From a virus (Duplodnaviria > Heunggongvirae > Uroviricota > Caudoviricetes), in the IMG/VR virus record IMGVR_UViG_3300028800_000066, positions 8,207 to 72,206 of that record: a stretch of 64,000 nucleotides of DNA; one strand, written 5' to 3'. This document shows, in pieces, positions 25,326-60,253 of this stretch. The notes under the pieces are model-generated. The model was given only the letters and a program-made list of their open reading frames with translations, was not told the origin of the DNA and did not search any database. Position 1 is the stretch's first letter; every line of letters begins with the position of its first letter. Position numbers and translations under genes: made by a program.

Positions 25326-25721
25326 TTAACTTAGCTTTATTTCTTTCAAAACTTCTTGAATCTTAGGGTCTTTAGCGCAGGCTTTTCGTAATCTTGCGAA
25401 TGCTATGTTCAATCTGGAATGCACAGCTTCTTGAGTTATAGACAAAATCGAACCCATATGTTCTTGTTTTTTGGATATTAAATACAAATCTATAACTTCT
25501 TGTTGTCGTTTTGTAAGGCAAGTATTGAATTTTTCCCTTATCAATCCTAGCAATTTCGCCTGCAACTCATCCAATTTCTTTCTTCTGTCTTCTTCTTCCA
25601 TCGGGTCTTTGGCTGTTTTATTCTTAAAACTATCCTGCATATCTTGAGGTGGCATCAGCTTCACCCTGTAGGTCCATTGCTGATTGTCATGTTCCTCTTT
25701 AGACATTTCTCTTCTTGGCAT
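25326..25721 (-). CDS. sigma-70 region-4-like HTH protein (small sigma or anti-sigma-like regulator)
   Basis: C-terminal LSITQEAVHSRLNIAFARLRKA resembles the sigma70 region 4.2 HTH. Confidence 0.5.
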   Translation of the reverse strand: MPRREMSKEEHDNQQWTYRVKLMPPQDMQDSFKNKTAKDPMEEEDRRKKLDELQAKLLGLIREKFNTCLTKRQQEVIDLYLISKKQEHMGSILSITQEAVHSRLNIAFARLRKACAKDPKIQEVLKEIKLS

Positions 25722-26547
25722 GTTGGTTTACCGCCTTTGGCAAAATTTGTCTTCGTTGTGCTTGTAGTTTTGAATCTTCACTTTGTTCTTTAACAGTCTT
25801 TAGAAATTCTTCCTTTCCATATTTTCTTATAAATTCATCAGGGTCTTTCGCACCCTTGAGTACAATCAAAAAAACCTCAACTTCTTTATTGAGCCTTATA
25901 TTTAGAACATTGTTCTTTTCACCAACAAAGAAGTTGGCGCTTCTTTTATTAAAACTAGCCATCGCTTTCCTACCACCCTCATCGTTATCAAATATTAGAT
26001 ATATTCTTGAGGTATATCTTGAAAGCAAATTGTAGTGTTCTTTTGTAAAAGCTGTTCCCTGGCAACCAACAGTATTTTCTAATCCCACTGTATGGGCAGT
26101 GATTACATCAGCATTTCCCTCATACACATAAGCTTTGTTTAACTCACGAATCATTCTTATGGCAAAATTCAATCCGTAAAGATATCTACCTTTATCATAG
26201 GCAGTATTAAAATACTTCGGTTTGTCATCTGCAAGAGTTCTTCCGGTAACAGCAATTAATTTACCATGAGTGTTCCAGACAGGAAAAATCACTCTGTTAT
26301 AAAGAAAGGTATTTCCCTTCTCATTCATAACACGAGCGTCTAGCAAGTCATCTTTGTCATATCCGCGCTTTAACAAAGCGGCAAACAATTGTGAATTTTT
26401 ACCTTGGGGAAAGAATCCCAGCCGCCATTTAGCAATAATTGTTGAATCCCAACCGCGACTGAGATAATAGTCTTTCGCTGTCTGTGTTAAATTTTTATCA
26501 GTAAATTCTACGACAGCATCAAATACGCTTTTCGTAATTAATGGCAT
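25699..26547 (-). CDS. DNA primase (TOPRIM domain, DnaG-like)
   Basis: EGNADVITAHTVG...IYLIFDNDEGGRKA (TOPRIM E...DxD motifs). Confidence 0.6.
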   Translation of the reverse strand: MPLITKSVFDAVVEFTDKNLTQTAKDYYLSRGWDSTIIAKWRLGFFPQGKNSQLFAALLKRGYDKDDLLDARVMNEKGNTFLYNRVIFPVWNTHGKLIAVTGRTLADDKPKYFNTAYDKGRYLYGLNFAIRMIRELNKAYVYEGNADVITAHTVGLENTVGCQGTAFTKEHYNLLSRYTSRIYLIFDNDEGGRKAMASFNKRSANFFVGEKNNVLNIRLNKEVEVFLIVLKGAKDPDEFIRKYGKEEFLKTVKEQSEDSKLQAQRRQILPKAVNQHAKKRNV

Positions 26548-27128
26548 TACCCTATTTCGATGTGAATGAATGTTGATGGGATAAACTTACAAAAATATTT
26601 GTCGGAATCTTTGTTATAATGGAAGAAGATATTGTTTTTAGAAGCCTTCTCTGCATTCACATAAACAACAACATTTCTGCCACTAGGCAATTTGGAACGA
26701 TTGTCTACCAAGCCAAATTGAACTGCACTAAATTGAAGTCCGCCTTTAGACACATTGAAAAAATCATTTTTATCAATGCATCCAAACAAATCTTTGGGTG
26801 TCTTCTCGATTCTTTCAAAAGATTCTGGAACATTCAGGTTTAAAATGACAGTGTGACCAAACTTCGCCTTGACCTTCATTCCATCGAAATAGAATAAATT
26901 CGCCGCATACTTTTTGGTCACACTAATCAATTCATCTTGAGTAAGCTTAAGCTTAAAGCGTTTATCGATGGACGATAAAACCTTAGTAGTTTCGGCGTAT
27001 CCATCTTGGTCCAGGGTAAGACCAGCAACTTTAGGCTTATGCCTTAATACGAACACCATAAAGCGACAAATGTTTTTGTATTTATCGACTAAGCTCTCTG
27101 TGGTGCCAATCTGTTTATTTTTATCCAC
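26547..27128 (-). CDS. hypothetical protein
   Basis: ORF. Confidence 0.5.
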   Translation of the reverse strand: MDKNKQIGTTESLVDKYKNICRFMVFVLRHKPKVAGLTLDQDGYAETTKVLSSIDKRFKLKLTQDELISVTKKYAANLFYFDGMKVKAKFGHTVILNLNVPESFERIEKTPKDLFGCIDKNDFFNVSKGGLQFSAVQFGLVDNRSKLPSGRNVVVYVNAEKASKNNIFFHYNKDSDKYFCKFIPSTFIHIEIG

Positions 27129-27142
27129 TTGTTATCCTCTTA

Positions 27143-27757
27143 TTATACTGCAACAGAGCTTGCATTCAAATACTTTTCCCAAGACGGATGAACTTTCTTC
27201 TTGGTCATTTTCCTCTTCTGCAAAGAACTGTTTGTCGGAACAACAGGCTTTCTCAAAAGTTTGAAACCAACTTCGGCCAAAGTCTTGTCACCCTTCTTCG
27301 AGTTACACTCGGAACAGGCGGCAACGCAGTTTTCAAAGTTAGTCTTACCACCCAAAGACTGCGGGTGAACGTGGTCGATGGTTATCTTTTTCTTCTTGTT
27401 AACCACAACACCATGCTCGGCCTTGAAGCCGCAATATTGACATGTGTAGTCATCCCTATAAAAGACGTTAATCTTTGAATACTTAACGGCTCTGTGTTTG
27501 GGCATGACGTTAGAATCCAACAAACGGATGATGGCCGGAATCTTCCAGACATACTTTCTGTTTGAGTTAGCGACCTCTCTATCATAAGCGATAGGAGTAA
27601 ATTCTTCCGTATCAGTATGCCATTCGTGCAACATTTCAGCGTCTCCCTCATAAAGATGAGAGATAGCATCCTGCCACTTAAGGATACCAACAACGTGGTA
27701 TGAAGAGTTTAAGACTAGAGTTCTTTCACCGCTCATGATACAATTCCTTTTTGTCAA
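27143..27757 (-). CDS. HNH endonuclease
   Basis: CQYCGF...IDHVHPQSLGGKTNFENCVAACSECNSKKG. Confidence 0.7.
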   Translation of the reverse strand: MTKRNCIMSGERTLVLNSSYHVVGILKWQDAISHLYEGDAEMLHEWHTDTEEFTPIAYDREVANSNRKYVWKIPAIIRLLDSNVMPKHRAVKYSKINVFYRDDYTCQYCGFKAEHGVVVNKKKKITIDHVHPQSLGGKTNFENCVAACSECNSKKGDKTLAEVGFKLLRKPVVPTNSSLQKRKMTKKKVHPSWEKYLNASSVAV

Positions 27758-27782
27758 TCCGTAATGGATTGAATATATCTAC

Positions 27783-27811
27783 ATTATAGCAAATTTCTGG
27801 CAATTTGTCAA
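27783..27811 (-). promoter_or_regulatory. consensus sigma70 promoter P5 (TTGACA-17-TATAAT)
   Basis: rc: GGTTGACAaattgccagaaatttgcTATAATgt, 25 nt upstream of the HNH gene start. Confidence 0.7.
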
Positions 27812-27833
27812 CCTTTTTTCGAAATATTTGCTA

Positions 27834-28613
27834 CTATTTCACCTTACGCAACTTTCTTGTTTTCTTCTTAATAAATTTAAGCTTTGGTTTAACTTGTACA
27901 ACCACCTCACCATCTTCATAGGTAATTGTAGTTTTGTTTCCCTCTATAATCACAGTTCTAATATCTTCACCAAAAATTTGCTTGGCGGCGATGTCTCTAA
28001 ACACAATTCTGCGAGTCAGACCGGATTTCTTAATTTGTTCTTCTTTATCTTTCTGCTCAAGGAATTGTTCCCATTGGTCCTGTAGGTCTTCCTCGGAAAT
28101 ATTTTTAATGAAATTGATGTCTTTTGGGGAGACCTTTACATTAAAACATTCAGAAAGATATATAGCCGCCGCTCTTTTGAGCACGGATTGGGTCAAATCT
28201 TTGTCGGAAACCACGACTTCGACCATATATGGTTTGTAACCAAATTCATTTTTGCTAGCTAACAAATAATGGTCTTGATGAATTTCCGGATTTTCGGGGT
28301 CATCGTAAAGAAATCGGAGAATTGGATTTTTATTTCTCTTGAATGCGGTGAGATTTTTAAATCCACCGAAACTCCAAGATACTTCATCCTTCTTCTCTTG
28401 TTCGTCCCATTCCTGTCTATCGAATAATTCTAGAAGCTCTTTGTAATCTTCTATTACTCTGTCTTTGGTTATGATTGTAGGGCAACGCTTAATAAGCTTG
28501 CCGTGATATCTAAAATAGATTGTGAGGTCAGTCCATTTTACTACTTGATTGTATTTTTTATCCCTGGGGAAAAGAACTGCTATATTATCTGCAAAAATAT
28601 TAACTGGGTGCAT
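27834..28613 (-). CDS. hypothetical protein
   Basis: ORF. Confidence 0.5.
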   Translation of the reverse strand: MHPVNIFADNIAVLFPRDKKYNQVVKWTDLTIYFRYHGKLIKRCPTIITKDRVIEDYKELLELFDRQEWDEQEKKDEVSWSFGGFKNLTAFKRNKNPILRFLYDDPENPEIHQDHYLLASKNEFGYKPYMVEVVVSDKDLTQSVLKRAAAIYLSECFNVKVSPKDINFIKNISEEDLQDQWEQFLEQKDKEEQIKKSGLTRRIVFRDIAAKQIFGEDIRTVIIEGNKTTITYEDGEVVVQVKPKLKFIKKKTRKLRKVK

Positions 28614-28628
28614 GTAGGAAAACCATCC

Positions 28629-29174
28629 TTATTTAGAATTGTATTCGTATTTTGCAACTCCTTCCGGTTTAGTGAGGGAATAATTTCCCTCTCTGGCAAT
28701 CTTTTCCATTATTTCTTTTACTAGGGCCAAAATTGGTGTGTTATCTGCGTTAGATAATCTCGCATTTTCATTTGAAACTAACAGGGTATTCAATTCATTG
28801 TTATAATTTTCTGGAACTACATACGCTAAATCCAAATATTCTTTAATAGTATTGTGGATTGTAAAGCTTCGAGTCACCAATTTTAATGAATGAGCAATGG
28901 AAGCAACCTTTAGTTGCGAAAGAAAGTCGTAACTATTGGCACCCTGGATAGAGTTACTTTCAACTCTAATTGGCATAAATTCAACAGATGATGTGATGGA
29001 AGATGAAATTTCAGTATCTACGCCAGTCATCACTTGGATAGGTAAAATTATCCATTTGCCAACAAATTCGTTATAATGCTTTGGATTTCCAGAGTTTTCA
29101 CATTTGAGTGCTATTTCTGGAGTGACGTATGAACCACCACAGACTTCACATACATATGTTTTTACTTCTTTCAT
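28629..29174 (-). CDS. hypothetical protein (N-terminal CxxC...C)
   Basis: ORF. Confidence 0.5.
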   Translation of the reverse strand: MKEVKTYVCEVCGGSYVTPEIALKCENSGNPKHYNEFVGKWIILPIQVMTGVDTEISSSITSSVEFMPIRVESNSIQGANSYDFLSQLKVASIAHSLKLVTRSFTIHNTIKEYLDLAYVVPENYNNELNTLLVSNENARLSNADNTPILALVKEIMEKIAREGNYSLTKPEGVAKYEYNSK

Positions 29175-29177: not shown

Positions 29178-29369
29178 TTAAGCCTCTGCAACTTTCTTGA
29201 AATTCTTCAAAAAATATTCATACGCGCTCTCATTGACTCTATTTTCACCTTCATAACTCCAGTATACGGTGAAGCTATAGACATCAACTCTTTGAACAAT
29301 AACGTCAGGACGATTAATAATGTTAATTAATCTCCACTTTTGTCCATTCTTAATCTGCGTCTCGTCCAT
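29178..29369 (-). CDS. hypothetical small protein
   Basis: ORF. Confidence 0.35.
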   Translation of the reverse strand: MDETQIKNGQKWRLINIINRPDVIVQRVDVYSFTVYWSYEGENRVNESAYEYFLKNFKKVAEA

Positions 29370-30234
29370 TTACTTTAGCGTCTCGGAAATCATAGCCACC
29401 TTCGCGTCTTAGCTTCAAAAAGGCTCTACGCAACTTCTCAAGCGCCCTCTCTTCAATTTGCCTTACACGTTCAGAAGTAGTCCCAACAACCTCTACAATA
29501 TCCTTCAAGGTCATTAGATTATCTGAATCACTGAAATATCTAAGGACAATAATTTCACGTTCCCTATCATTAAGCTTTTCGTAAATGATTCCCAAAAGTT
29601 GTTCCCGATTTATCTTGTTGATAACAACCTGTTCCGGAGTCGGCTGAGTGTCACGAATGACATTCAACAATAAAGGCTTTCCATCCGACTTGTCACCATT
29701 AGCTTCCTGATGAATGCTGATGACCTTAATTTCAGTCATCACATTGTCGTTATCAATATACTTTCTCTTAAAAGTCTCGCTCTGGAAAAGTTTGTTCTTC
29801 AAGAATTCTGAATTGCTTGATTCGTCATCAAGGTCCAGAATCTCTCTGTATTTCTTATAGGAATAGTTCATGAATTGAACGTTCCTGGGTACAGTCACAA
29901 CAGACCTCTGGCAACCTTCAAAAATGTATTTGTAAACCCAATAGAAAAGATAGGTAGAAAAGGCAGTATCCTTTTCCAAATCAAACCTGTCTAATGCATC
30001 GAAGAATCCAAGAACACCATTCTGAAAGCAATCATCGGGGTCAGTATACATCTTAGAAAATTTCATAGAAATCTTCTTGATATAGCGAATATTGTTAAGG
30101 AAGATTTTCTCCCTTAAAACAAGCTTCTTCTCTTCATCAACTTCAGCCTTGTAAGCTCTGATTAATTCTCTGACTTCATCCTTGGAAATGAAATCTTGAG
30201 AAAGCTGGTCGTGAAGTATTTTGTTTTCTGACAT
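29350..30234 (-). CDS. sigma-70 family RNA polymerase sigma factor
   Basis: Region 2 (DDCFQNGVLGFFDALDRFD...YLFYWV) and region 4 (REREIIVLRYF...LKDIVEVVGTTSERVRQIEERALEKLRR). Start moved to MSENK (GAGGA RBS). Confidence 0.65.
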   Translation of the reverse strand: MSENKILHDQLSQDFISKDEVRELIRAYKAEVDEEKKLVLREKIFLNNIRYIKKISMKFSKMYTDPDDCFQNGVLGFFDALDRFDLEKDTAFSTYLFYWVYKYIFEGCQRSVVTVPRNVQFMNYSYKKYREILDLDDESSNSEFLKNKLFQSETFKRKYIDNDNVMTEIKVISIHQEANGDKSDGKPLLLNVIRDTQPTPEQVVINKINREQLLGIIYEKLNDREREIIVLRYFSDSDNLMTLKDIVEVVGTTSERVRQIEERALEKLRRAFLKLRREGGYDFRDAKVNGRDAD

Positions 30235-30241
30235 TCTATCC

Positions 30242-30661
30242 TCAGAAGGTAGAGTCGTGTCTGTTTGAGAATTTCTTTCCATCTTTATAACCCAGCGCAT
30301 ACATTTGGAGTGTATTCTCGGCTAGTGATTCGAAAATATAATAGTCGTAATCACCATTGCTTGCCAATTCATACGCCTTGTCATAGAATGCCAAAACGGT
30401 AGCATCTACAGCAAGGTCGTTAGTTCCTCTGTATGTATCAATCTTTTCTTTAATCTGTGTGGCGTGATTTTTGATGTCTCTTTGATTTTCTAGCTCAACA
30501 TCTTTTGCGATGGAGTAGATTATCTTATCTTCTCTATACTTAGCATGATTCAATTGGATTTGCATGTATCCCACATATCCAACCAAAAAAGTGAGTAAGA
30601 GTATTGTGGGTGTTATAGTTTTCTTCCATTTCCTGAGCACTAGCTTGAGTCTGTAAAGCAT
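30242..30661 (-). CDS. hypothetical membrane-anchored protein
   Basis: N-terminal TM helix. Confidence 0.4.
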   Translation of the reverse strand: MLYRLKLVLRKWKKTITPTILLLTFLVGYVGYMQIQLNHAKYREDKIIYSIAKDVELENQRDIKNHATQIKEKIDTYRGTNDLAVDATVLAFYDKAYELASNGDYDYYIFESLAENTLQMYALGYKDGKKFSNRHDSTF

Positions 30662-30995: not shown

Positions 30996-31010
30996 TATTT
31001 ACCTTAATTG

Positions 31011-31359
31011 TGGAGGCGGTGGGAATCGAACCCACGTCCAAACAACTTTCCAAATTCAATCTACGTGTGTGTTCGGTTTTGCAGTCCGACAACTGTATTC
31101 GTTTTGTCCGTTTCGTTTTCATCTTAGCAGGGCAGAGTTATAACTGTCAGACTAATAAACTCTTACACTGAGCATCCTAAAGCGGCTCTGAAATTCACAC
31201 CTATAGGAGTCGGTGGTCAGAGTAGTCGCTATTAAGCGGCTAGTAGTTCCATTTCTTCGGCATTTCAATTTGTCTGCAAAGGTTTTTAGAGGGCCTTCAC
31301 GACAACTCCCTCACACGCATGAATGTTGTACTGTTATCTGTCGAAACCAAGTCGCCCCC
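31011..31359 (-). ncRNA. ssrA: tmRNA (SsrA)
   Basis: 5' GGGGGCGACUUGGUUUCGACAG. 3' tRNA-like end GGACGUGGGUUCGAUUCCCACCGCCUCCA. Internal tag reading frame ...GCC GAA GAA AUG GAA CUA CUA GCC GCU UAA UAG (AEEMELLAA). Confidence 0.8.
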
Positions 31360-32686: not shown

Positions 32687-32740
32687 CGTACCCTCATGAG
32701 TTATCTAACTGTTGAATTATACCACACTTCGGCTTGTTTG

Positions 32741-33259
32741 TCAAGACCACCAGCTTTGAACCTTTTGTCTCACATCGTGGAACACTTTATCGTAATCCGC
32801 TTTTTCTCGTTCTTCCATCAATTTCAGGATTCTGTCTCTTTCTTTTTCGGCTTTCTTGTTAATGGGTTTCCATTTATTCCCATACTTTTTATCGTATGCA
32901 TCCCATTCCTGTCTACAATAATCGTTGTCATGTTTTAATCTATGTATGGCATCCCTAACTTCTTGAATCTCTTTGGCGTAAATAGGACCAGACAAAGTTT
33001 CATCCGTTTCGCTCACCTGATGATTCGGGTCATTCTGTAAGACGTTCTGTGTTCTAGAAAGTTGATAATCCATAACTTCCAGAACATCAGTGCCCTCCCA
33101 ATCTCTAAGACTCCACAGAGTAGGAATCCAACGAATGATGCTCCATACCTTCTGACATGGAATTTCAACCATATCTTCGAATGGTTCATAAATGAAAGCA
33201 TCTAACCATCCATAGGTTTCTATTCTATATTTCTTATGAGCAATCCATCTTTGGAACAT
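32741..33259 (-). CDS. hypothetical protein
   Basis: ORF. Confidence 0.5.
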   Translation of the reverse strand: MFQRWIAHKKYRIETYGWLDAFIYEPFEDMVEIPCQKVWSIIRWIPTLWSLRDWEGTDVLEVMDYQLSRTQNVLQNDPNHQVSETDETLSGPIYAKEIQEVRDAIHRLKHDNDYCRQEWDAYDKKYGNKWKPINKKAEKERDRILKLMEEREKADYDKVFHDVRQKVQSWWS

Positions 33260-38347: not shown

Positions 38348-38579
38348 AGTCTAATACTGGCTTGCTTACAGCTTCTAACATTTTTTCAATATCATACTTT
38401 AAATCAGAAACCTCTTCTCCCGTCATTTCTACAGAGTTTTCAGAGATTCCGTTGGGATTTCCATCCTTATCATACCATACTGTGTGAATGGCAAAATAAG
38501 TATAACCATCAGGATAAATCTTGTTTAATGATTCAGCGACGGGTTTGTTACGCTTGATTAGTCTGTAATTCCATCCCAT
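38280..38579 (-). CDS. hypothetical protein
   Basis: ORF. Confidence 0.35.
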   Translation of the reverse strand: MGWNYRLIKRNKPVAESLNKIYPDGYTYFAIHTVWYDKDGNPNGISENSVEMTGEEVSDLKYDIEKMLEAVSKPVLDYAIFEEMEKKHAPVESDNRSDS

Positions 38580-39687
38580 TTTTTCCTCGTTTGAAATTAC
38601 CGACCTTATAGGCCAATTGTAATTTCCGAACTTCTTCCTGTTCCTCTTTGCTGAAACTCAATCCAGCTTTCACAGCGTAACGTAATTGATTGTTGAAAAG
38701 ATTTCCGCACGTACTTTCTGAAATGCTTAAAGTTTTTGCGATTTCAGGATAACTGAATCCCTTTAGAATCATTTCTCTAGCTGAGCGAATAATCTCAATC
38801 GAGAATTTTTGTTGAGCCTTAGAAAGATTATCCAAATTCGTGTCACTAATCCTTCTCTTAGCAAGAGAAATGTTGGCTCTTGCTTCTTCCGAGAAAACGC
38901 GGCCATTATTGTTTCTTCCATTACAAGACAAGTTCTCATCCAGATTTTCTGTGTGCATGAGAATACGCAATCTACGGAAAGCTATAAAAGTGATTTGACG
39001 AGCACGTTCAGTTGTCAATCCCATCACAACAGCCATTTGCTTATAGGTTTTGTGATTAAAATAGTATTCTCGGATTGCCATGCGTTCCTTGATGGTTAAC
39101 TTATTGTTGATTACCTTGATAAGCTTCGTCCGTAAATCTTTATCATCTAACTCTTCTGCCAAGTTATCTTCAATCTCAACAGTCTCATTATCCGGAATCA
39201 CATCGTTATAAGAACGATTAGTCCCATCATCAGAAAGCAAGGGAGCGTTTAGATAAATCAACCTATCATTCATGTGAGCCCTGGCTTCTTCCTTATGATT
39301 CTCATAATCACCAGTAGGAATTTTCAGGATGTGATTAGCTCTCATGCAATGTTGCATCTTCTGATTAATCCAGTATGCGGAATAAGTCAAGAATTTAAAC
39401 TTACGATTAACTTTAAACTTTTCAAGACTATGCATAAATCCGATAACGCCAGCATTAAAGAAATCATCAACTTCGATACTGGGATTAATCCGGTGAAAAC
39501 GATGTGCTTGTTTACGAATAAAACGAATATGATTCTGGAAAATTAATTCTCTGAATCTATATTTGTCATCTTCGTTCTTAGCACTTTTATATTGTTTAAT
39601 CAATTTAAGAATCTCTGGATACTTTAAAACCTTCTGCTTAAGCAGAAAAATCATTTCAGGAGATTCTTTACTGGTATCAAACGACAT
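38548..39687 (-). CDS. sigma-70 family sigma factor with extra C-terminal HTH
   Basis: Region 2-like FNAGVIGFMHSLEKF...YSAYWINQ. Region 4-like ERMAIREYYF...MAVVMGLTTERARQI. Additional SYPEIAKTLSISESTC HTH. Confidence 0.6.
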   Translation of the reverse strand: MSFDTSKESPEMIFLLKQKVLKYPEILKLIKQYKSAKNEDDKYRFRELIFQNHIRFIRKQAHRFHRINPSIEVDDFFNAGVIGFMHSLEKFKVNRKFKFLTYSAYWINQKMQHCMRANHILKIPTGDYENHKEEARAHMNDRLIYLNAPLLSDDGTNRSYNDVIPDNETVEIEDNLAEELDDKDLRTKLIKVINNKLTIKERMAIREYYFNHKTYKQMAVVMGLTTERARQITFIAFRRLRILMHTENLDENLSCNGRNNNGRVFSEEARANISLAKRRISDTNLDNLSKAQQKFSIEIIRSAREMILKGFSYPEIAKTLSISESTCGNLFNNQLRYAVKAGLSFSKEEQEEVRKLQLAYKVGNFKRGKNGMELQTNQA

Positions 39688-39802
39688 TTTTCACCAAAGA
39701 AAACTTTATCATCTACACATAAGTCATTATACCACATAAAGGTAAAAAAGTCAAGCCCTCTAACGGATTGTTAGAAGGCTTAACAGTTTTCCAACACTCT
39801 TG

Positions 39803-39875
39803 AGCTGGCGGAGGGAATCGAACCCACGACATCCTCATTACAAGTGAGGTGCTCTACCAACTGAGCTACGCCAGC
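39803..39875 (-). tRNA. tRNA-Thr (TGT)
   Basis: Loop CTTGTAA. Standard cloverleaf. Confidence 0.8.
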
Positions 39876-39889
39876 ATTGAAAATTTCTG

Positions 39890-39969
39890 AGCTATCTGAG
39901 AGAATCGAACTCTCGCTGGTTTCCCGCCCGATTACAAATCGGGTGCCATTCCACTCGGCTCAAGATAGC
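39890..39969 (-). tRNA. type-II (long variable arm) tRNA with anticodon loop TTTGTAA (TGT by canonical numbering), identity uncertain
   Basis: gctatct|tg|agcc..ggca|cccga-TTTGTAA-tcggg|cgggaaaccagc|gagag-ttcgatt-ctctc|agatagc|t. Confidence 0.5.
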
Positions 39970-46252: not shown

Positions 46253-46361
46253 CTTTTCGAAATTGCATTTTCATAGCAAAATTCTATTTTAATACCTAGA
46301 GTTCGAAATCTAATTATTAGGAGATTACAGCATGAAATGCATAAAAAGAGCAGTAACTAAG

Positions 46362-46444
46362 TGGGTTAGGAGAGACTCGAACTCTCAAGCCCTTTCGGGC
46401 ACTAGCTTCTTAGACTAGCGTGTATGCCATTCCACCACTAACCC
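46362..46444 (-). tRNA. tRNA-Leu-like type II with anticodon loop CTAAGAA (AAG)
   Basis: Paralog of tRNA-Leu(TAG) at 37969 (same D, variable and T arms). Position 34 is A instead of T. Confidence 0.55.
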
Positions 46445-46457
46445 ATATTTAAATCTG

Positions 46458-46541
46458 TGGCCCAAGTGGGACTCGAACCCACACTCCCCGAAAGGAACCA
46501 GATTTTAAGTCTAGCGCGTCTACCAATTACGCCATCGGGCC
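46458..46541 (-). tRNA. tRNA-Leu (TAA), second copy
   Basis: Loop CTTAAAA. Variable arm ttcctttcggggagt. Confidence 0.7.
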
Positions 46542-46554
46542 ATTTATAAACTTG

Positions 46555-46642
46555 TGACCAAGGAGAGATTCGAACTCTCACGCCCATTACAGGCAACGGT
46601 ATCTAAAGCCGTCATGTCTACCTATTTTTTCATCACTCGGCC
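46555..46642 (-). tRNA. type-II tRNA, probable Leu (TAG) with oversized D-loop
   Basis: Acceptor ggccgag/cttggtc (2 G-U). AC stem acggc/accgt with loop TTTAGAT. Variable arm tgcctgtaatgggcgt. Fold less certain than the others. Confidence 0.45.
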
Positions 46643-46664
46643 ATGCTTGTTGCTTTTTATATTG

Positions 46665-46748
46665 TGGGCCAGGAGGGACTTGAACCCCCACTCCCCGAAG
46701 GGAACCACATTTTGAGTGTGGCGTGTCTGCCAGTTCCACCACTAGCCC
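46665..46748 (-). tRNA. tRNA-Leu (CAA), type II
   Basis: Loop CTCAAAA. Variable arm ttcccttcggggagt. Confidence 0.75.
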
Positions 46749-46761
46749 GTTATTACTTTCG

Positions 46762-46837
46762 TGACCTCCCTCGGATTCGAACCGAGACGTAAACTAGGTT
46801 TGAGCTAGTTCCCTCTACCAAATTGGGGTAGGAGGCC
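46762..46837 (-). tRNA. tRNA with anticodon CAA (Leu UUG) but type-I short variable arm
   Basis: ggcctcc|ta|ccc..ggg|a|actag-CTCAAAC-ctagt|ttacgt|ctcgg-ttcgaat-ccgag|ggaggtc|a. A73. Confidence 0.55.
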
Positions 46838-47359
46838 GTTAACGGTTTAATCCGGTTACATCACCGTAAGTTTTATAAATCACCGGAACTTATCCCAGTC
46901 ATTAATTCGTCCACTCGTCAGACTGGGAATTGAGAGTGAGACTATTCGGCTTAGTATTTTCGTCTAATTAAATACAAATTAATTGACGAACTAGCCAAAC
47001 TTTTTATCTTTTTTATACTGCCACCCACGGTCTGCGCCTTACGGAACTATCCTTTCGGACGTTTCGCAAACTACGTGGGTTAATTAATCGGCGGGATTTG
47101 GTTATCTCTGGTAGTGGAATACGGTCCACTAAGCACAGTTATCGGTCCTGCCCCTTGCGGGTTCTCGCCAAACTTAAATCCAAGTGTGGTGCGAACCTGT
47201 CTGCCATATCCGCTCACCTATTTTCGGGTTCTATCCCTTACCGCAGACTCGACTTGGATTTAATGCGCTTTCAGCCTTGCAGTTTTGTCTCTCGACAATA
47301 CCTCGGTCCATTCCATTTCGTAGATGAAATGAGGTTTCGACTTAGTGCTGAAACTTTAA
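46838..47359 (-). ncRNA. about 520-nt non-coding, highly structured element embedded in a tRNA operon (candidate large ncRNA)
   Basis: No ORF of 60 aa or more on either strand. Flanked directly by tRNAs. Long-range complements, e.g. UUAAAUCCAAGU...ACUUGGAUUUAA, GUCUGC...GCAGAC, GGUAAGGG, and two AGAACCCG motifs. Confidence 0.45.
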
Positions 47360-54017: not shown

Positions 54018-55721
54018 TTAACCCTTGATGAAGTCACTCATCACGGCTGGGGCAGATGAATCGAATCCTACCACGTCTAACATTCCAGCATCGTTAGGGT
54101 CTGCAATCGTGAAATCATTCGTAACCATACCAACCACAACTGACTTGGCATTGTTACTAGACTGCTTGCGATATTCTGCAAGAGCCTGATGTGGGTGAAT
54201 TCTTCCAGCATAAGTCTCGTTATCGGTGTAGACAAAGAAAGCATCTACATCTAACTTATTCTGCTTTGCATAAACCATCGGCAAAGAGCAATCAGTTCCA
54301 CGGAAAGGAAGATTATTGATGACTGAGATTACATCATCCAATCTCTTCTTTCCAGAAATGTTCAAGTCAATGAACTCTGTCGAGAATCCCTTGATATAGA
54401 CGTTCTTCTCAACCTTTGCAGTAACCATTGCCATAGCCGCGCTTACCACTCTTGGCGTAAGACCTGGAATACCAGAAATTGAACCGCCGTCCATTGAACC
54501 AGACACGTCCAAGGCCAACATGATGTTCTTTCCAGTTGGCTCAACATTATCAAATGCTGTGTAGAAAGCAGAATCCAATGCGTCCACAACTGTCTGGACC
54601 GGAGTCCAGGAATTTCCACCACGCTCACCGTGACCCTGCTGATAAACCTTCAAGGCCGACAATAACTGAATCGGATGCACTCTCGCCTTCTTCAAAGCCT
54701 CTACATTAGCAAGCTTTTCAGCGACAAGCTTTGAACCCTGTGAAAGCGGTGCAATCAATCCAACTCTTGTCATTGTTGCAATATTACGAATCATTGCAGT
54801 CAATGGCATGTGCGGAAGTAATGCATCCCACACTTCAATGGTGTTAAGTAACTCTGTAGGAACAGCTTCACGAGGAAGTTCGTGTTCTCTAATCAATCCA
54901 ACAATTTCAGAAGCAGTCGTTGCCCTCTGAGCCTGTTCGAAAGCATTAATCATCGGGTGGATATTGACGATAAGCTTTCCTTCATTGTCATAGTGCGACT
55001 TTACCCATGACTGAATCTGCTCGTGCTTCTCGGAATACTTCACCTTTGCCGAATCGTTCTTGGCAGAGACAGGGGCATCCTTACCAGCCTTATACTTATT
55101 CCACGCAACCCACTGATAGATATCATTACGTGCGGCATCAGCGGTCTTCAAGTGAGCAAGACGCAACGCATCACGATGTTCAAAACCTTCACGATTACGA
55201 TACTTAATAACCTGTAATGCAAGGCCATCCAAGTTCTTCTCGTTATACCAACGCTGAACTGCCTTACGCAATCCAGTACCAGTTCCCTTGCCAATGGTGT
55301 CCGCAATCGACAAGAACTGGAACAAATGTGTGGCGATTCTGCATACCTTTGAAAGGTTCTGATATGCATACGCACGAGTAGCCGCATCACCATGCTTTAC
55401 GACAAGCGCAAGAGCAAACACAGCGGGGTCATTCTTTGGAGCGCGACCATTGTGAGAAATTTCCACAATAGTATCAACAGTCTTGCGACCATTTTCCTTC
55501 ACGCACTCCAAGATGCACTTCGCACTGTCCTGTGTCATCTTGTGCTCGGATGCATAATACGAGCCACCCTCGTTTCCAAGAATCAAGAAACGGTTTAAAC
55601 GGGTCCAGTTGTCTACCTTGAATGTAAAGCCACCCGCGCTGTTTGGAACCTGATTGCTTCCGAATACCTTCTCGGACTGGGGTGTAACCTTAGTTGAAAC
55701 GTGCGAAGCATAGTTTGACAT
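54018..55721 (-). CDS. vWA-domain protein with Ro60/TROVE-like architecture (Rsr-like, inferred)
   Basis: C-terminal vWA MIDAS LALDVSGSMDG...T...D. About 400-aa helical N-terminal module. 567 aa matches the Ro60 size and domain order. GGAAGAGGAG RBS. Own consensus promoter. Confidence 0.5.
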   Translation of the reverse strand: MSNYASHVSTKVTPQSEKVFGSNQVPNSAGGFTFKVDNWTRLNRFLILGNEGGSYYASEHKMTQDSAKCILECVKENGRKTVDTIVEISHNGRAPKNDPAVFALALVVKHGDAATRAYAYQNLSKVCRIATHLFQFLSIADTIGKGTGTGLRKAVQRWYNEKNLDGLALQVIKYRNREGFEHRDALRLAHLKTADAARNDIYQWVAWNKYKAGKDAPVSAKNDSAKVKYSEKHEQIQSWVKSHYDNEGKLIVNIHPMINAFEQAQRATTASEIVGLIREHELPREAVPTELLNTIEVWDALLPHMPLTAMIRNIATMTRVGLIAPLSQGSKLVAEKLANVEALKKARVHPIQLLSALKVYQQGHGERGGNSWTPVQTVVDALDSAFYTAFDNVEPTGKNIMLALDVSGSMDGGSISGIPGLTPRVVSAAMAMVTAKVEKNVYIKGFSTEFIDLNISGKKRLDDVISVINNLPFRGTDCSLPMVYAKQNKLDVDAFFVYTDNETYAGRIHPHQALAEYRKQSSNNAKSVVVGMVTNDFTIADPNDAGMLDVVGFDSSAPAVMSDFIKG

Positions 55722-56591: not shown

Positions 56592-56610
56592 ATAGGTAAT
56601 TTAATTTTTG

Positions 56611-56683: not shown

Positions 56684-56845
56684 ATTATATCTACTGATAT
56701 TTCGTAAACCTTCCAAACATCTTTGCCATGTTGCTTATTTAAATCTTCACATTTATTTTTAGCTTCATCTATATCAAAAAACATTTTATCATCGTATGAC
56801 TTTGTTAACTTTGGTTTGTTGGCAACTATCCAAGCCTGAAACACA

Positions 56846-57043
56846 TTAGCCTCTATTGTTTATATAATCTTTAAATGCTTGTATGCCTAAAATGACAATA
56901 ACCAACATTACAGAACCACTAATCGTGAGTAGAAACCAATTCCCAAGACTTAAAAATAACAAAACTTTAGGTAATGATACAATATATAAAATCATTCCAA
57001 GAGCTACAAAAAATCCAATCAATCGAACAATATCATTTTTCAT
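56846..57043 (-). CDS. small membrane protein
   Basis: Two TM helices. Confidence 0.4.
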   Translation of the reverse strand: MKNDIVRLIGFFVALGMILYIVSLPKVLLFLSLGNWFLLTISGSVMLVIVILGIQAFKDYINNRG

Positions 57044-57182
57044 AAATCATCCGAGATGAATTCCGTTTTTTTATCCATAAAATCATGGAAGGGGCAAAAT
57101 TACGTCTAAACCCACTTTTAAGGAATAAGCTGACCAGTCATTTAAAGTTTAAAGCGGAACTGAACGACTAAAATAAACGCTG

Positions 57183-57255
57183 TGGAGCTTCGGGGATTCG
57201 AACCCCGCACATCTACCTTGCAAAGGTAGCACTCTACCAAATGAGTTAAAGCCCC
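57183..57255 (-). tRNA. tRNA-Ala (TGC)
   Basis: Loop TTTGCAA. G3:U70 present. Confidence 0.8.
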
Positions 57256-57256
57256 A

Positions 57257-57760
57257 TTATTTCTTTGAATCGTTTTCTCTTATCTGTTCAATCGTAAAAC
57301 CATTGTTTATATAAACAACAAAATCAATCTTATATGTATCTGAAACTCTATTCAAAATACCTTCAACAACATTCCAATTTCCTCCAGCTAATCCGCATCC
57401 AATCAATGGAAGAGCAAGAGTCTTTAGGCTCTTTGAAAGCATATCAAGACAAACACCTGACAGGCTTTTTTCTAAAGCTCCGTAATCTAAATCCATTCTT
57501 CCAACATTTCTTCCCCTATAATCAAACTGGGAATAAATATTGTATCCAAATTTTCCATCAGGCAATTGCAAGTAAGTATAAGCGCCCAATTTCTGCTGTG
57601 GAGTAAATGGACTTTTACAATCCGCAATTTCATACATCGCAGGCCATTTAGCTCTTACCGCTTTCGCAACACCACTACCCATTGTAGATTGGCAATTACA
57701 CCCGTGACCGAATGCATCTTCTGTGAAAGCAAGTAAATCACCAGTCTTATAAGTAATCAT
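57257..57760 (-). CDS. macro-domain protein (ADP-ribose binding/hydrolase-like)
   Basis: GDLLAFTEDAFGHGCNCQSTMGSGVAKAV and later IGCGLAGG resemble MacroD-type motifs (GD..x..DA..N..x..G.GV.. / G.G..G). Confidence 0.55.
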   Translation of the reverse strand: MITYKTGDLLAFTEDAFGHGCNCQSTMGSGVAKAVRAKWPAMYEIADCKSPFTPQQKLGAYTYLQLPDGKFGYNIYSQFDYRGRNVGRMDLDYGALEKSLSGVCLDMLSKSLKTLALPLIGCGLAGGNWNVVEGILNRVSDTYKIDFVVYINNGFTIEQIRENDSKK

Positions 57761-57966
57761 CTTAATCCGGAAGGGTGTTGTCCGTTTTTATTCTTTGCAT
57801 TCACAAAAGCAGACATCTTACGAAGCATTTGAGCGTGTTCATCCAGTTCTTTGTTGGCTCTAGCAATAAAAGCTTTCTTAACCTTTGGGTCTTGGATTTC
57901 TTTTGCTTGAGCGTCAACCTTTTTCTTTTCTGCTTTTAGGTCAAATGGCGATGCGTATTCTGTCAT
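57757..57966 (-). CDS. hypothetical small protein
   Basis: ORF. Confidence 0.4.
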   Translation of the reverse strand: MTEYASPFDLKAEKKKVDAQAKEIQDPKVKKAFIARANKELDEHAQMLRKMSAFVNAKNKNGQHPSGLR

Positions 57967-58295
57967 GACTTACTCGCAATTACGGCATCCATTAAATCTT
58001 TAAATCTTGCTTCACCCTGGGCTCCAACAATCATTTCAAACTGCTTTCCATCTTTGAAAGCAATCAAAGTAGGAATCGACATAACTTCGTATTTTTCTGC
58101 AAGACCATTGTTGTTATCAATGTTGACTTTAACAATCTTAATCTTGCCTTCGTATTCTTTTTGAAGTTTGTCTAAGATAGGGGCGACCATTCTGCAAGGT
58201 CCGCACCACTCTGCCCAAAAATCAACTAAAACAGGTAATGATGAATCTAAAACCGTTGTCTTAAAATTTTCTTCATTAACATTTACCAAATCCAT
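57963..58295 (-). CDS. trxA: thioredoxin
   Basis: WAEWCGPCR active site. 110 aa. Confidence 0.85.
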   Translation of the reverse strand: MDLVNVNEENFKTTVLDSSLPVLVDFWAEWCGPCRMVAPILDKLQKEYEGKIKIVKVNIDNNNGLAEKYEVMSIPTLIAFKDGKQFEMIVGAQGEARFKDLMDAVIASKS

Positions 58296-58337
58296 TTTAT
58301 ACCATCCTTTGATTGTTCTGGCCCCGCACCCATCGTT

Positions 58338-58604
58338 CTAATCTACACTCTCAAGTGTTTTTGATTTATTCTCTGGCACTTGTGGAGTTTTAGTTTTTCT
58401 ATATTTTTCCTCTATTTCTAAACTTATTCCCTCGTCTCTTAGTGAACAATTTTCTGGAGGACGAGTATATGCCTCATTCGGTAATCTTATTTCGTCCGAT
58501 TTACCAAGATATTTCTGTAATGAACAGAAGAAATAATCTTGGGGTATTTGTCTTTTCTTGAACGGACACTCGTTACAATACCTGATTGTCTCAAGTGCTA
58601 TCAT
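58338..58604 (-). CDS. hypothetical Cys-containing small protein
   Basis: ORF. Confidence 0.4.
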   Translation of the reverse strand: MIALETIRYCNECPFKKRQIPQDYFFCSLQKYLGKSDEIRLPNEAYTRPPENCSLRDEGISLEIEEKYRKTKTPQVPENKSKTLESVD

Positions 58605-58629
58605 GCTTTATCCATTATATCAAATTGAA

Positions 58630-58884
58630 TTAATTTTCTGAAATCTTTTTATATCGCATACGGACTGGAACATCAATTCCTAGTCCATATATCTTGATGG
58701 AACGGTGAGCAACTTCGATAAATTTGTTAACATCGTCAGGTTTGATGAATTCCAAATGGACATTGTAATGACCATCAACCTTTTTACGACTGTAGATAAT
58801 CTTGGAGTAGGGGAATTCTTGGCTTAAGATTTCCCCAATTTTTTTCATACTCTCCTTGACATTATTATCGATATTGCTCACCAT
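58630..58884 (-). CDS. hypothetical protein
   Basis: Start moved to MVSNID. The track ORF ran through the tRNA-Asp gene. Confidence 0.4.
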   Translation of the reverse strand: MVSNIDNNVKESMKKIGEILSQEFPYSKIIYSRKKVDGHYNVHLEFIKPDDVNKFIEVAHRSIKIYGLGIDVPVRMRYKKISEN

Positions 58885-58905
58885 GACTAGTTCCACTTTC
58901 TTCCT

Positions 58906-58979
58906 CGTATTTTTATTTGCTACTGCGGAATTGATGGGATTTGAACCCACGGTCTCCTCAGTGACAGTGAGGCGCATTA
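58906..58979 (-). tRNA. tRNA-Asp (GTC)
   Basis: Loop CTGTCAC. G73. Confidence 0.8.
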
Positions 58980-58996
58980 GGCCGCTATGCTACAAC

Positions 58997-59068
58997 TCCA
59001 TGCCTTCTTTCTTTCGCCCCTCCAGCGAGACTCGAACTCGCTCTTACGCATAGACAGTGCGGTTTGCT
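58997..59068 (-). tRNA. tRNA-Asp-like (GTC), second, less canonical copy
   Basis: Loop CTGTCTA (pyrimidine at position 37). G-U pairs in the acceptor. G73. Confidence 0.5.
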
Positions 59069-59105
59069 AACCCTTACAACATGGAGAGATATTTTAATTA
59101 TTTCG

Positions 59106-59176
59106 TGGCCCCAAGGGGAATCGGACCCCTGCCCTTACATTGAGAATGTATTGTCCTGCCACTAGACTATGGGGCC
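59106..59176 (-). tRNA. tRNA-Glu (CTC), alternative anticodon reading possible
   Basis: With a 4-bp AC stem plus A-A, the 7-nt loop is TTCTCAA (CTC). A 6-bp stem/5-nt loop alternative exists. T-loop is TCCGATT. Confidence 0.55.
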
Positions 59177-59739
59177 ATTCTTGCTAAACGTTTTTTTAGT
59201 AACTCTCGACTTCTAGTAATTCGACTTCTGGCAGTAGTTTCTGAAACTCCCAAAATTTCCGCCGCATCCCGATAAGACCTGAAACCATCTTCTTCCATGA
59301 AAGCGTAAAAACATTTTCTATGTTTAGATGGAAGATTTTCAATTTCAGTCTTAACAAGCACCAACATATCTTGACTACTCAAACGTTTATCTATATCAAA
59401 TTTTCTGTCGTGAAGAAATTCTTGTGCGGTAAATCCGCTTTCTGCTCTGTCTTCATAAACCGCACCGCCATCAAGAGAAATTGTAAATCCTTTTCTCTTG
59501 AAAGATTGTTCTGCTCTAAAAAAGTTTGAGCAAGCGTTCTTGGTGATTGAATAAAGCCAAGTTTCCAGCTTGCTATCGTTTCTAAAAGTGTCTAGGCTTT
59601 TGTAGAAATTTAAAAATATATCATGAGCTAATTCTTCGGATTGCTCACGACTTGTATATCTTCTACAGTAACCCTTCACAAACTTTAATTTTCTCTTATA
59701 CATGTCGTTAAAGAGTTCTTCTTTTTCCATTTGTTCCAT
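59167..59739 (-). CDS. ECF-type (sigma-70 family) sigma factor
   Basis: Region 2 AHDIFLNFYKSLDTF...ETWLYSITKN. Region 4 YRDAAEILGVSETTARSRITRSRELLKKRL. Confidence 0.65.
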   Translation of the reverse strand: MEQMEKEELFNDMYKRKLKFVKGYCRRYTSREQSEELAHDIFLNFYKSLDTFRNDSKLETWLYSITKNACSNFFRAEQSFKRKGFTISLDGGAVYEDRAESGFTAQEFLHDRKFDIDKRLSSQDMLVLVKTEIENLPSKHRKCFYAFMEEDGFRSYRDAAEILGVSETTARSRITRSRELLKKRLARMAP

Positions 59740-59740
59740 G

Positions 59741-60253
59741 TCAACTCTTTTTACGATTTATGTTATTCCTAATATATTTAAGTGCTCTGGAAGATTTCTG
59801 TCTCACATTATCGTTAGAACACTTTAAGATTTTAGAAATCTCAACCAAAGTCTTATCTTCTACAAATCTCAAGGTCATTATCTTGATGCTTTCTTTGTCA
59901 AGATTTTTAATTATCGCAAAAATCTTATCTGTCTGTTTTTTTATTTCCAATTCTTCTTCCGAAGCCACTCTGTTTTTGAAATAGAATTCTGGCTCTTCAA
60001 TGAGAACCGTTGTCTGATTATATTTAGAACGAAGAAAGTCCAGACAGTGATTCCTTGCTATCGAGCAAATCCAGGTCTTAATCGAACTTTCTTCCGCTCT
60101 AAACCTAGAGATATTGATAAAAGCCTTTATAAAAACTTCCTGCGTTAAATCTTCCAAATCTCTTGAACGTGGTCCAACAAATCTGGCGCAGAAAGATTTT
60201 ACTAACCGATAATTCTGAGTGTATACTATTTCAAATTTCTCTTGCGTATACAA
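59741..60253 (-). CDS. ECF-type sigma factor (second, adjacent)
   Basis: LTQEVFIKAFINISRF...KTWICSIARN. KTLVEISKILKCSNDNVRQKSSRALKYIR. Confidence 0.65.
   Translation of the reverse strand: MYTQEKFEIVYTQNYRLVKSFCARFVGPRSRDLEDLTQEVFIKAFINISRFRAEESSIKTWICSIARNHCLDFLRSKYNQTTVLIEEPEFYFKNRVASEEELEIKKQTDKIFAIIKNLDKESIKIMTLRFVEDKTLVEISKILKCSNDNVRQKSSRALKYIRNNINRKKS

Follow-up and report, generated by a model that had tools for sequence, protein, structure and literature searches.

A 64,000-nt stretch of DNA from a virus of the Caudoviricetes (positions 8,207 to 72,206 of IMG/VR record IMGVR_UViG_3300028800_000066; this whole stretch is referred to here as the window) encodes four sigma-70 family factors, together with a small protein that carries sigma region 4 only, all of them within 35 kb. 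The best explanation for this arrangement, to which we give a probability of about 60 %, is a hand-over of transcription from the host sigma factor to sigma factors of the phage, in the form proposed below. The sigma-70 identity of these proteins, the strong host-type promoters of the early region and structural genes that lack such promoters all fit a hand-over of this kind. There is good support for a change-over of one step, from the sigma of the host to that of the phage; the data neither demonstrate nor exclude further tiers. The five sigma-type genes all lie on the minus strand, at the positions given in an earlier note made from the letters of this DNA, and are named as follows (ECF, extracytoplasmic function; HTH, helix-turn-helix):

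29350..30234, minus strand: sigma2, a 294-aa SigA/RpoS-type factor with regions 2, 3-equivalent and 4 (Pfam, family profile, orthologues)
38548..39687, minus strand: sigma3, a 379-aa paralogue of sigma2 with regions 2 and 4 and a C-terminal extension of ~130 aa (Pfam, AlphaFold, alignment)
59741..60253, minus strand: ECF-A, an ECF-type sigma of 170 aa whose TTG start codon follows a tRNA-Glu gene at a distance of 19 nt (Pfam, sigmaE match)
59167..59739, minus strand: ECF-B, a 190-aa ECF-type sigma that starts 1 nt past the ECF-A stop codon (Pfam, sigmaE match)
25326..25721, minus strand: the region-4-only HTH protein, 131 aa, overlapping the 3' end of a primase gene by 23 nt; no further gene separates it from the early/late boundary

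A Pfam scan of 99 open reading frames (ORFs) found region 2 in exactly four proteins and region 4 in five, with PHROGs and NCBIfam in agreement; thus, no sigma gene was overlooked, and the claim of four sigma-70 genes plus a region-4-only protein was borne out. Matches to Sigma70_r2 ranged from E 1.5e-7 to 1.1e-18 (4.5e-8 for the sigma2 ORF, taken as 29350..30300; 1.5e-7 for sigma3; 1.1e-18 for ECF-A; 1.3e-14 for ECF-B), and Sigma70_r4 or r4_2 was found in all five proteins (r4 at 4.1e-14, 3e-11 and 9.3e-9 for sigma2, sigma3 and ECF-A; r4_2 at 6.6e-8 for ECF-B; borderline for the region-4-only protein). All four region-2 proteins also possess region 4, with no region-2-only ORF among the 99, and none of the sigma-type proteins matched Pfam Sigma70_r3. 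An aromatic TY..YW motif is conserved in sigma2 and sigma3. The possibility, raised in advance, that profile searches might classify these proteins as anti-sigma factors or unrelated HTH regulators was likewise addressed: Pfam, PHROG, TIGR02937 and matches to solved structures place them in the sigma-70 family. None of the five reached the equivalog cut-offs of the SigF/G/E/K models (230–460 bits), the best scoring ~70 bits (spore_sigF 70.5 bits against a cut-off of 321; SigK 57.8 against 252), and general and primary-sigma models scored equal to or above the sporulation models. The phage sigmas are predicted to bind the host core polymerase.

The promoters and terminators that organize these genes are:

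62220..62248, minus strand: P62248, a perfect host-type promoter heading the stretch with tRNA, cold-shock domain (CSD) and ECF genes
39750..39784, minus strand: an intrinsic terminator (15-pair stem, T run) lying over the −35 of the sigma3 promoter and closing the upstream tRNA unit
39726..39754, minus strand: P39754, TTGACT-N17-TATAAT with TG, directly upstream of sigma3 (11/12 consensus positions)
32716..32744, minus strand: P32744, a perfect promoter heading the unit of tRNA-Cys, transfer-messenger RNA (tmRNA) and sigma2
27783..27811, minus strand: P27811, a perfect promoter heading the HNH – Tpt1 – primase – region-4-only unit, conserved in the related contigs L009 and L018
25276..25305, minus strand: T25305, a strong intrinsic terminator (13-pair stem) just past the region-4-only gene, at the end of the early region

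Six perfect copies of TTGACA-N17-TATAAT are present, all on the coding strand, compared with 0.08 expected, and host-type early promoters, which had been assumed previously, are thereby confirmed. Counting near-perfect copies there are eight (at 62228, 53253, 47553, 42363, 39734, 34254, 32724 and 27791), spanning 27.8–62.2 kb, and all eight combine a TG extended −10 (TGnTATAAT) with a cTTGACAAA −35. In the head module no promoter with a host-type −35 was found. The −10 of P39754 ends at 39726, placing this promoter 39 nt upstream of the sigma3 start codon, and the ECF pair sits inside a tRNA unit that likewise lies behind a host-type promoter. As host-type promoters head the units of all five genes, all five are early by promoter type, and the early region ends exactly after the region-4-only gene. 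Only two strong coding-strand terminators occur between 24 and 43 kb (39784 and 25305), with none between P39754 and T25305; a stem and T run are found at the position of T25305 in six relatives, the stem sequences themselves being different. Beyond the host-type promoter our searches returned little: de novo k-mer enrichment gave nothing but that promoter and a weak signal, TCTTATA; anchoring on TTGAC and allowing another −10 revealed no promoters; and in a gapped dyad search of the intergenic DNA of the 64 kb no class besides the host-type one exceeded shuffles, with no ECF-type promoter (AAC-type −35, CGT-type −10) emerging. A further 10 kb past the low end of the window showed no other promoter-like gaps.

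For sigma2, orthologue lengths and alignment make the start at 30234 (294 aa), as originally chosen, preferable to that of the longest ORF (30300): orthologues measure 260–297 aa but for one of 223 aa, and the 16 that were aligned begin at the methionine at 30234. A profile of the sigma2/sigma3 family spans regions 2 to 4 of solved sigma factors (SigA 6e-27, Bacillus subtilis SigA 1.6e-23, RpoS 1.5e-22) and is, for sigma2, continuous across region 3 of solved SigA; because of this unbroken alignment from region 2 to region 4, the description 'full sigma-70-like' is fair for sigma2. Both region 2.4 ('TYLFYWVYKYIFEG') and region 4.2 ('TSERVRQIEERAL') are conserved. We found 21 orthologues with 49–93 % identity, all of them metagenomic, after which similarity drops sharply (E 1e-15) to bacterial primary sigmas at ~30 %. 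No member of the family is present in 185,579 species-representative bacterial genomes (GTDB), where the scan returned only sigmas of ≤27 % identity over full length and a single 58-residue fragment at 42 %, with no prophage copies and no clue to the host. Scans of IMG/VR with single sigmas gave no match, and the family alignment as query added one distant relative. The best phage matches to sigma2 and sigma3 are SigF/G-like factors of other Bacillus phages (24–31 % identity). On these comparisons sigma2 is a predicted phage sigma conserved throughout its clade.

Coupled to it is a further small gene:

29178..29369, minus strand: a 63-aa ORF overlapping the end of sigma2 by 20 nt, conserved in relatives, a possible sigma partner

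This ORF has no Pfam family, yet recurs at 49–69 % identity in L009, L005, L017 and L018, directly after the sigma gene each time, and may be a partner of the sigma. Its counterparts of 60–71 aa (L005 8352..8537, L009 10845..11060, L017 7830..8012, L018 6671..6856) appear beta-rich by eye and are translationally coupled to the clade sigma in every relative examined.

Sigma3 shares 28 % identity with sigma2 over 265 aa, and its region-3 segment is largely deleted in the alignment and predicted to be disordered. The AlphaFold model is confident for residues 20–117 and 183–246, with values below 50 on the predicted local distance difference test (pLDDT) for 122–181 and 251–286 and of 56–68 for helices in 290–362. 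The extra HTH previously ascribed to this protein drew an HTH_38 match that falls under the cut-off (E 0.0026) and lies with those low-scoring helices; the extension itself is conserved in both orthologues, and it probably contains an HTH, at low confidence given the model. Searches of PDB sequences with the C-terminal extension and with the region-4-only protein gave spurious or no matches, and this C-terminal domain has no detectable relation to the region-4-only family. Only two orthologues of sigma3 were found (84 and 69 % identity), both of equal length, and the gene is absent from the 10 kb upstream of sigma2, the syntenic place, in a relative with 76 % identity.

Of the five sigma-type genes, only sigma2 and the region-4-only gene are conserved across the clade. 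They belong to a gene order that reads, in full, sigma2, coupled small ORF, ORFs of ~180 and ~260 aa, HNH, Tpt1, DnaG primase and region-4-like gene (126–134 aa), followed by a ~170-nt gap and then by proteins of ~100, ~480 and ~350 aa. The order is present, whole or in part, in nine relative contigs: it is entire in L005, L009, L017 and L018, deviates between sigma2 and the HNH gene in L007, and is partial in L041, L043 and L044. The most divergent, L039 (28–38 % identity), retains sigma – Tpt1 – DnaG – region-4-only – terminator – p100 – p480; the comparison with it did not take in the HNH gene and the three ORFs. In the window the first genes past the boundary (22286..25145; ~100, 480 and 360 aa) could be placed in no family of Pfam or PHROG; those of ~100 and ~480 aa still have counterparts with 32–34 % identity at 12643..14337 of L039, a distant 205-kb IMG/VR contig.

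Within the gap, and among the head genes, the following sites are of interest:

25189..25230, minus strand: a conserved block of non-host type, AAAATTTRATAT-N5-TAWTA-N5-6-GTAAAGG, then CTTAATAT, between the terminator and the structural super-operon
6875..6942, minus strand: two copies of TG(T/C)AAA-N3-CTTATAT, weak candidates for late promoters, in a 229-nt gap upstream of the HNH and 647-aa genes
2080..2094, minus strand: a third copy, TGTAAAAACCTTATA, past the terminator that follows the major head gene

The block at 25189..25230 is a candidate for a promoter read by a phage sigma (a late promoter) or for a regulatory site. In six phages 22 of its 34 columns are invariant, compared with 8 of 40 and 7 of 40 in the flanks, and in these it is followed by a ribosome-binding site and the next operon; each locus holds one copy at a constant position. 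An exact-pattern scan of 241 million metagenome records returned four more contigs with the same context and four unrelated AT-rich places, whilst in L039 the terminator is followed at this position by a degenerate, AT-rich TAATA...CTTATTAT. Directly past the block, the sequence GTAAAGGCTTAATAT resembles three intergenic sites of the head module, TG(T/C)AAA-N3-CTTATA, at 6942, 6888 and 2094; with only three or four copies this motif is a lead rather than an established promoter class. The suggestion that conserved motifs be sought upstream of structural genes has thus yielded one conserved block of non-host type and three weak look-alikes, and no recurring class in 74 kb. The 229-nt gap (6850..7078) also contains an isolated TGATATAAT and, in all, three TG(T/C)AAA repeats, two of which form TG(T/C)AAA-N3-CTTATA; next to it an HNH/endonuclease VII-type gene (6106..6849) interrupts the head module, separating the protease from the 647-aa gene.

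The region-4-only gene itself is preceded in every locus by a primase gene:

25699..26547, minus strand: a DnaG-type primase with catalytic core and Toprim domain (PHROG 6444 1.4e-55; Pfam DNAG_N and Toprim), immediately upstream of the region-4-only gene in all loci

Region 2 is absent from 25326..25721 in the Pfam scan and, as such, the protein is not a complete sigma. Its Pfam r4 match is marginal (24.0 bits against a cut-off of 24.1, E 2.7e-5), and the call is backed by independent matches to PHROG 351 (3.7e-6) and TIGR02937 (1.3e-5) and by a profile–profile comparison, in which the four-member region-4-only family aligned with region 4 of the sigma2/sigma3 family (hhalign, 86.9 %, E 4e-6). 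Only nine relatives were found among 1.84 billion representative proteins, all of 79–138 aa and never fused to region 2, and the gene is syntenic in nine relatives; a tblastn search of 50,697 phage records gave no match, and a single-sequence AlphaFold model (pLDDT 73) no meaningful Foldseek match.

The ECF pair is flanked by two tRNA genes:

60273..60347, minus strand: tRNA-Glu(ttc), directly upstream of ECF-A (ARAGORN, Rfam)
59105..59176, minus strand: tRNA-Glu(ctc), the first 10 nt of which overlap the last codons and stop of ECF-B (ARAGORN, Rfam)

Both proteins align end to end with Escherichia coli sigmaE (1or7) and B. subtilis SigW (5wuq), with a full-length match of ECF-B to sigmaE at 1.4e-13, and score 95.7 and 70.2 bits with TIGR02937 against a cut-off of 42.9. 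Their best phage matches are ~29–33 % identical. The location of the pair within a tRNA island was borne out (41 tRNAs by ARAGORN, with one more tRNA and a tmRNA by Rfam), and the statement that adjacent paired ECF sigmas are unusual is fair, with some qualification. ECF-A and ECF-B share 31 % identity, and this in region 2 only, arguing against a recent duplication. ECF factors typically, though not universally, have an anti-sigma encoded in the same transcript; the adjoining genes are tRNAs and not an anti-sigma factor, and the next ORFs beyond (115, 88 and 110 aa) carry no anti-sigma Pfam domain, HxxxCxxC motif or membrane segment. At a strict E ≤ 1e-10 the only orthologue of ECF-A was a 99 %-identical copy from the same population, and none was found in the examined stretches of relatives; ECF-B was not searched against the large database. 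Since the two are not recent duplicates, have no anti-sigma neighbour and, for ECF-A, no orthologue at that threshold beyond the same-population copy, they give the impression of accessory genes confined to this lineage, not of a cascade tier that the clade conserves. The overlap with tRNA-Glu(ctc) takes in the final three codons of ECF-B together with its stop; if RNase P cuts at the 5' end of this tRNA, the stop codon would be lost and a non-stop mRNA left, and the phage also encodes a tmRNA. This could be a control that sets processing against translation, or merely tight packing.

The course of events that we propose begins with host RNA polymerase and the host primary sigma, which would first read 27–64 kb from at least eight near-consensus extended −10 promoters; the region so transcribed carries the tRNA, tmRNA and RNA-repair island and all five sigma-type genes. 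The phage sigmas would then load onto the host core and direct it to phage promoters that lack the host −35/−10 consensus, the first such site being, on this proposal, the conserved block that stands at the head of the structural and packaging genes, past the terminator at 25.3 kb. Sigma2, its coupled 63-aa ORF and the stand-alone region-4 protein would form the conserved core of the switch, and sigma3 and the ECF pair would be later, lineage-specific additions, with targets that could be in the chromosome of the host. The domains present, their conservation, the order of genes and the positions of promoters and terminators are direct observations; host core binding, the pairing of sigma with site, and timing are predictions drawn from them.

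Several observations weigh against a hand-over. None of the four sigmas could be paired with a promoter, and a promoter class specific to a sigma should recur, whilst the block is single-copy in each 11–21 kb locus and in the 74 kb of this phage that were examined; its look-alikes in the head module number only three and are weak. The late region contains isolated extended −10 sites without a −35 (22273, 20578, 15216 and 7053), from which the host sigma could still serve some late genes, and in its region 4.2 helix sigma2 is similar to primary sigmas, so that its −35 preference may differ little from that of the host factor. Being single-copy, AT-rich, next to the primase module and without recognizable −35/−10 geometry, the block might instead be a replication or packaging signal, such as a primase or origin site near the primase gene. 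We regard this as the least probable of the readings weighed here, as in every relative the block occupies precisely the space that separates an intrinsic terminator from the ribosome-binding site of the following operon, which runs in the same direction, must have a promoter and has none of host type there, and the AT-rich arrangement at the same position in L039 recalls it. If the hand-over from host to phage sigma is retained, one may ask whether it proceeds in several steps, and the earlier note did propose a multi-step sigma cascade. For a true cascade of the SPO1 type, with early, middle and late classes and each sigma a separate tier, speak the four distinct sigmas of two architectural classes, the dedicated host-type promoter and terminator-bounded start of sigma3, which could make it the earliest, and the existence of phages with three sigmas and a cascade (SPO1, SP10). 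The first phage sigma gene of a cascade would lie behind a host-type promoter, and here the units of all five genes do, with no strong terminator from P39754 to T25305. The later sigma genes would stand behind promoters of an earlier phage sigma; no non-host promoter was found upstream of any sigma gene, an unrecognized promoter type being possible, and the k-mer, TTGAC-anchored and dyad searches gave no second or third promoter class. There is thus no evidence that any phage sigma is under the control of another. Moreover, most of the relatives in which sigma2 and the region-4 protein are retained yielded no close orthologue of sigma3 or ECF-A, so a cascade involving them is not a conserved feature. 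The multi-step proposal was thus not borne out, and we consider it unlikely.

Other readings concern what the individual proteins act upon. The ECF pair, and perhaps sigma3, might be auxiliary genes of host takeover that act on host regulons (envelope or oxidative stress, dormancy) and not on phage promoters, much as has been considered for the sporulation-like sigmas of Bacillus phages. Around them lies an accessory island whose other genes are for tRNAs, thioredoxin, a cold-shock protein, Ro60 and RNA repair, the searches with ECF-A and sigma3 indicate that they are lineage-specific, the 64 kb revealed no ECF-type promoter, and a phage sigma may be dispensable and work on networks of the host (PMC9429907). 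Nevertheless, none of the sigmas reaches any host sigma equivalog cut-off, none is sporulation-like, and the window covers only the lesser part of what is probably a very large phage genome, in the rest of which there could be promoters for the ECFs or sigma3; we therefore treat a role confined to host regulons as possible but doubtful. The region-4-only protein could be a competitor or co-factor that docks on the polymerase flap, or a plain LuxR/GerE-like DNA binder of the adjacent block. The folds of sigma region 4 and of the LuxR/GerE HTH are homologous, and an ordinary regulator of the boundary element, rather than a sigma fragment that docks on RNA polymerase, would be in keeping with the Pfam score just under the cut-off, with weak PDB matches to GerE (E 0.16) and QscR (E 0.46), with a recognition helix (TQEAVHSRL) that lacks the RQIE motif of sigma 4.2, and with the proximity of a conserved block as potential binding site. 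Against this, Pfam r4, PHROG 351, TIGR02937 and the phage's own sigma family all match the protein better than any LuxR model, the TIGR02937 match reaches into the linker preceding region 4, and there is no GerE Pfam match; a LuxR/GerE-type regulator is accordingly a tentative option, held at much the same level as the host-takeover role. Bolder, and in our estimate improbable, is the idea that the protein is a trans-acting 'sigma-4 module' that performs the early-to-late switch. Such a module might occupy the beta-flap and shut off −35-dependent host and early promoters, much as T4 gp33 or AsiA do by means of unrelated folds, or serve as a separate −35-reading subunit for sigma2 at the conserved block, and it could derive from a captured host dnaG–sigA operon. 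The hand-over from host sigma to phage sigmas remains the reading that we prefer.

The window as a whole is the junction of the early region and the head module of an uncultured jumbo phage related to Bacillus phage G, as follows from 58 % identity to phage G in the head protein, the lack of any nucleotide-level phage relative and the occurrence on metagenome contigs. Nearly all genes are on the minus strand, and the G+C content is ~39 %. The head and packaging module occupies the low-coordinate end:

13388..15178: gpA-type large terminase
10925..12574: portal
7507..8949: prohead protease
2180..3157: major head protein

The 58 % identity of the major head protein is to gp27 of phage G, the head proteins of other jumbo phages being more distant, and the large terminase is ~32 % identical to terminases of Bacillus and Geobacillus phages. 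A palindrome, TGTCAAAATAATATAACAAATTGACA (15179..15260, minus strand), overlaps the sole promoter-like sequence, TGTTATAAT, upstream of the large terminase and is operator-like. When 20 kb were compared at the nucleotide level with 50,697 phage records, tRNA fragments were all that matched, and identical sequence is present on metagenome contigs of up to 110 kb (the 110-kb one being ENA ERZ27245399:k141_1102035).

The region from 31 to 64 kb contains the 41 tRNA genes detected by ARAGORN, to which Rfam adds the tRNA at 46555..46642 and the tmRNA, and also encodes Ro60/TROVE, two RNA ligases, RlaP, Tpt1, CoaE, thioredoxin and a cold-shock protein, a set that resembles an RNA repair and quality-control island. 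The Ro60/TROVE protein, with a vWA domain (54018..55721, minus strand; E 1.6e-60), lies within the tRNA island, and no Y RNA was found by Rfam. The tmRNA (31008..31359, minus strand; Rfam 116.7 bits) was missed by ARAGORN, and its tag reads approximately AEEMELLAA; L005, L007 and L009 have tmRNA-like sequences upstream of sigma2 (by eye, Rfam not applied), and the frame in L005 reads ANEELELLAA. Adjacent tRNAs with the same anticodon are frequent (39802..39969, 46361..46837 and elsewhere in the island): Thr-tgt, Leu-caa, Lys-ctt, Lys-ttt, Asp-gtc, Arg-acg and Gly-tcc each occur as pairs and Asn-gtt as three, and several of these duplicated tRNAs have long or odd variable regions. Between tRNA genes, a 522-nt non-coding gap (46838..47359, minus strand) has a G+C content of 0.44, above its surroundings, and folds far better than shuffles (z = −4.15; 0/100 shuffles as good). 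Rfam gave nothing for it, even with the threshold at E 0.05, which makes the gap a candidate for an unknown structured RNA inside the island. Two other long non-coding gaps among tRNAs, 60348..60728 and 60803..61072 (minus strand), adjoin the ECF pair and the cold-shock gene. The 381-nt gap 60348..60728 does not fold significantly better than shuffles (z = −1.25), and neither gap has an Rfam match except a sub-threshold cspA-thermoregulator, which is located inside the cold-shock gene.

Sigma homologues are common in jumbo phages without their own polymerase and are thought to redirect host RNA polymerase (PMC13282480; also PMC7162821). A survey of 4,350 reference phage genomes found sigma genes to be lacking in 86.6 %, with a single gene in 11.7 %, two genes in 1.1 % and three in 0.7 % (Schwartz et al., 2022). 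In SPO1, transcription passes from host sigmaA to phage sigmas (PMC13401047), and SPO1 and SP10 have three sigma genes each (PMC9429907). The present phage resembles these two (gp28, then gp33/gp34 in SPO1) as a lytic, Bacillus-type system without its own RNA polymerase, in which early genes are on host sigmaA promoters, sigma-family proteins of the phage seize (here, are predicted to seize) the host core and several sigma genes are found per genome. It differs in that no sequence orthology was detected, neither hierarchical wiring nor a separate middle or late consensus was found, and four sigmas, two of them ECF-type, occur with a region-4-only protein. Phage G (Bacillus/Lysinibacillus) is the closest cultured relative by head protein and is likewise a giant with tRNAs, a tmRNA and several sigma-70-like genes. 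The literature disagrees on the latter: a 2025 re-annotation lists three sigma-70-like factors, a tmRNA and 18 tRNAs (PMC12484599), whereas in an earlier survey group 3 jumbo phages, including G, were without sigma factors (PMC7824862). Its 18 tRNAs compare with at least 41 in 33 kb here, and none of its proteins is among the 120 sigma2 homologues listed.

With the sporulation-like sigmas of Bacillus phages (Schwartz et al., 2022) the proteins described here have in common that they belong to Firmicutes phages and may act on host promoters, the difference being that none of the five attains a sporulation equivalog score. The small phage ECF-like sigmas, with regions 2 and 4 only and found in lytic phages, offer another likeness. 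Among them are phiEco32 gp36, a phage-encoded ECF-like sigma, and proteins annotated as 'sigma-W' in crAss-like phages; the ECFs of the window differ as two divergent, translationally coupled genes between tRNA genes, with no anti-sigma found. In the late transcription of T4 the region-2-like sigma gp55 acts with gp33 on the beta flap, and AsiA/MotA exemplify sigma appropriation. Both are also summarized in PMC7824862. By analogy, sigma functions in the present phage may be split over small proteins, with a stand-alone module at the docking place of region 4 that would switch the polymerase away from −35-dependent promoters. Unlike in T4, the window holds no region-2-only protein, and the region-4-only protein, unlike gp33 and AsiA, is homologous to region 4 in sequence; its function is a prediction from that homology. 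In the bacterial macromolecular-synthesis operon, dnaG is followed by rpoD/sigA, and the order found here, a primase and then a sigma-related gene, translationally coupled and clade-conserved, is reminiscent of it, except that the downstream gene is only region-4-like (126–134 aa) and the primase a catalytic core of 266–304 aa.

Four sigmas and a fragment place this phage at or beyond the known upper end of 0–3 per genome, in what is the same kind of system. Phage sigmas are a textbook timing device for phages without their own polymerase, and the general picture of transcription control is unchanged. What is genuinely new is a sigma2 family known only from metagenomes, its fixed stand-alone region-4 partner and a conserved boundary element. 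The family and its fixed set of partners occur in relatives of the only cultured megaphage, and the boundary DNA offers a concrete, conserved and testable element at the border of early and late genes. If the region-4-only protein does act on the polymerase, it would represent a new and simple form of sigma appropriation.

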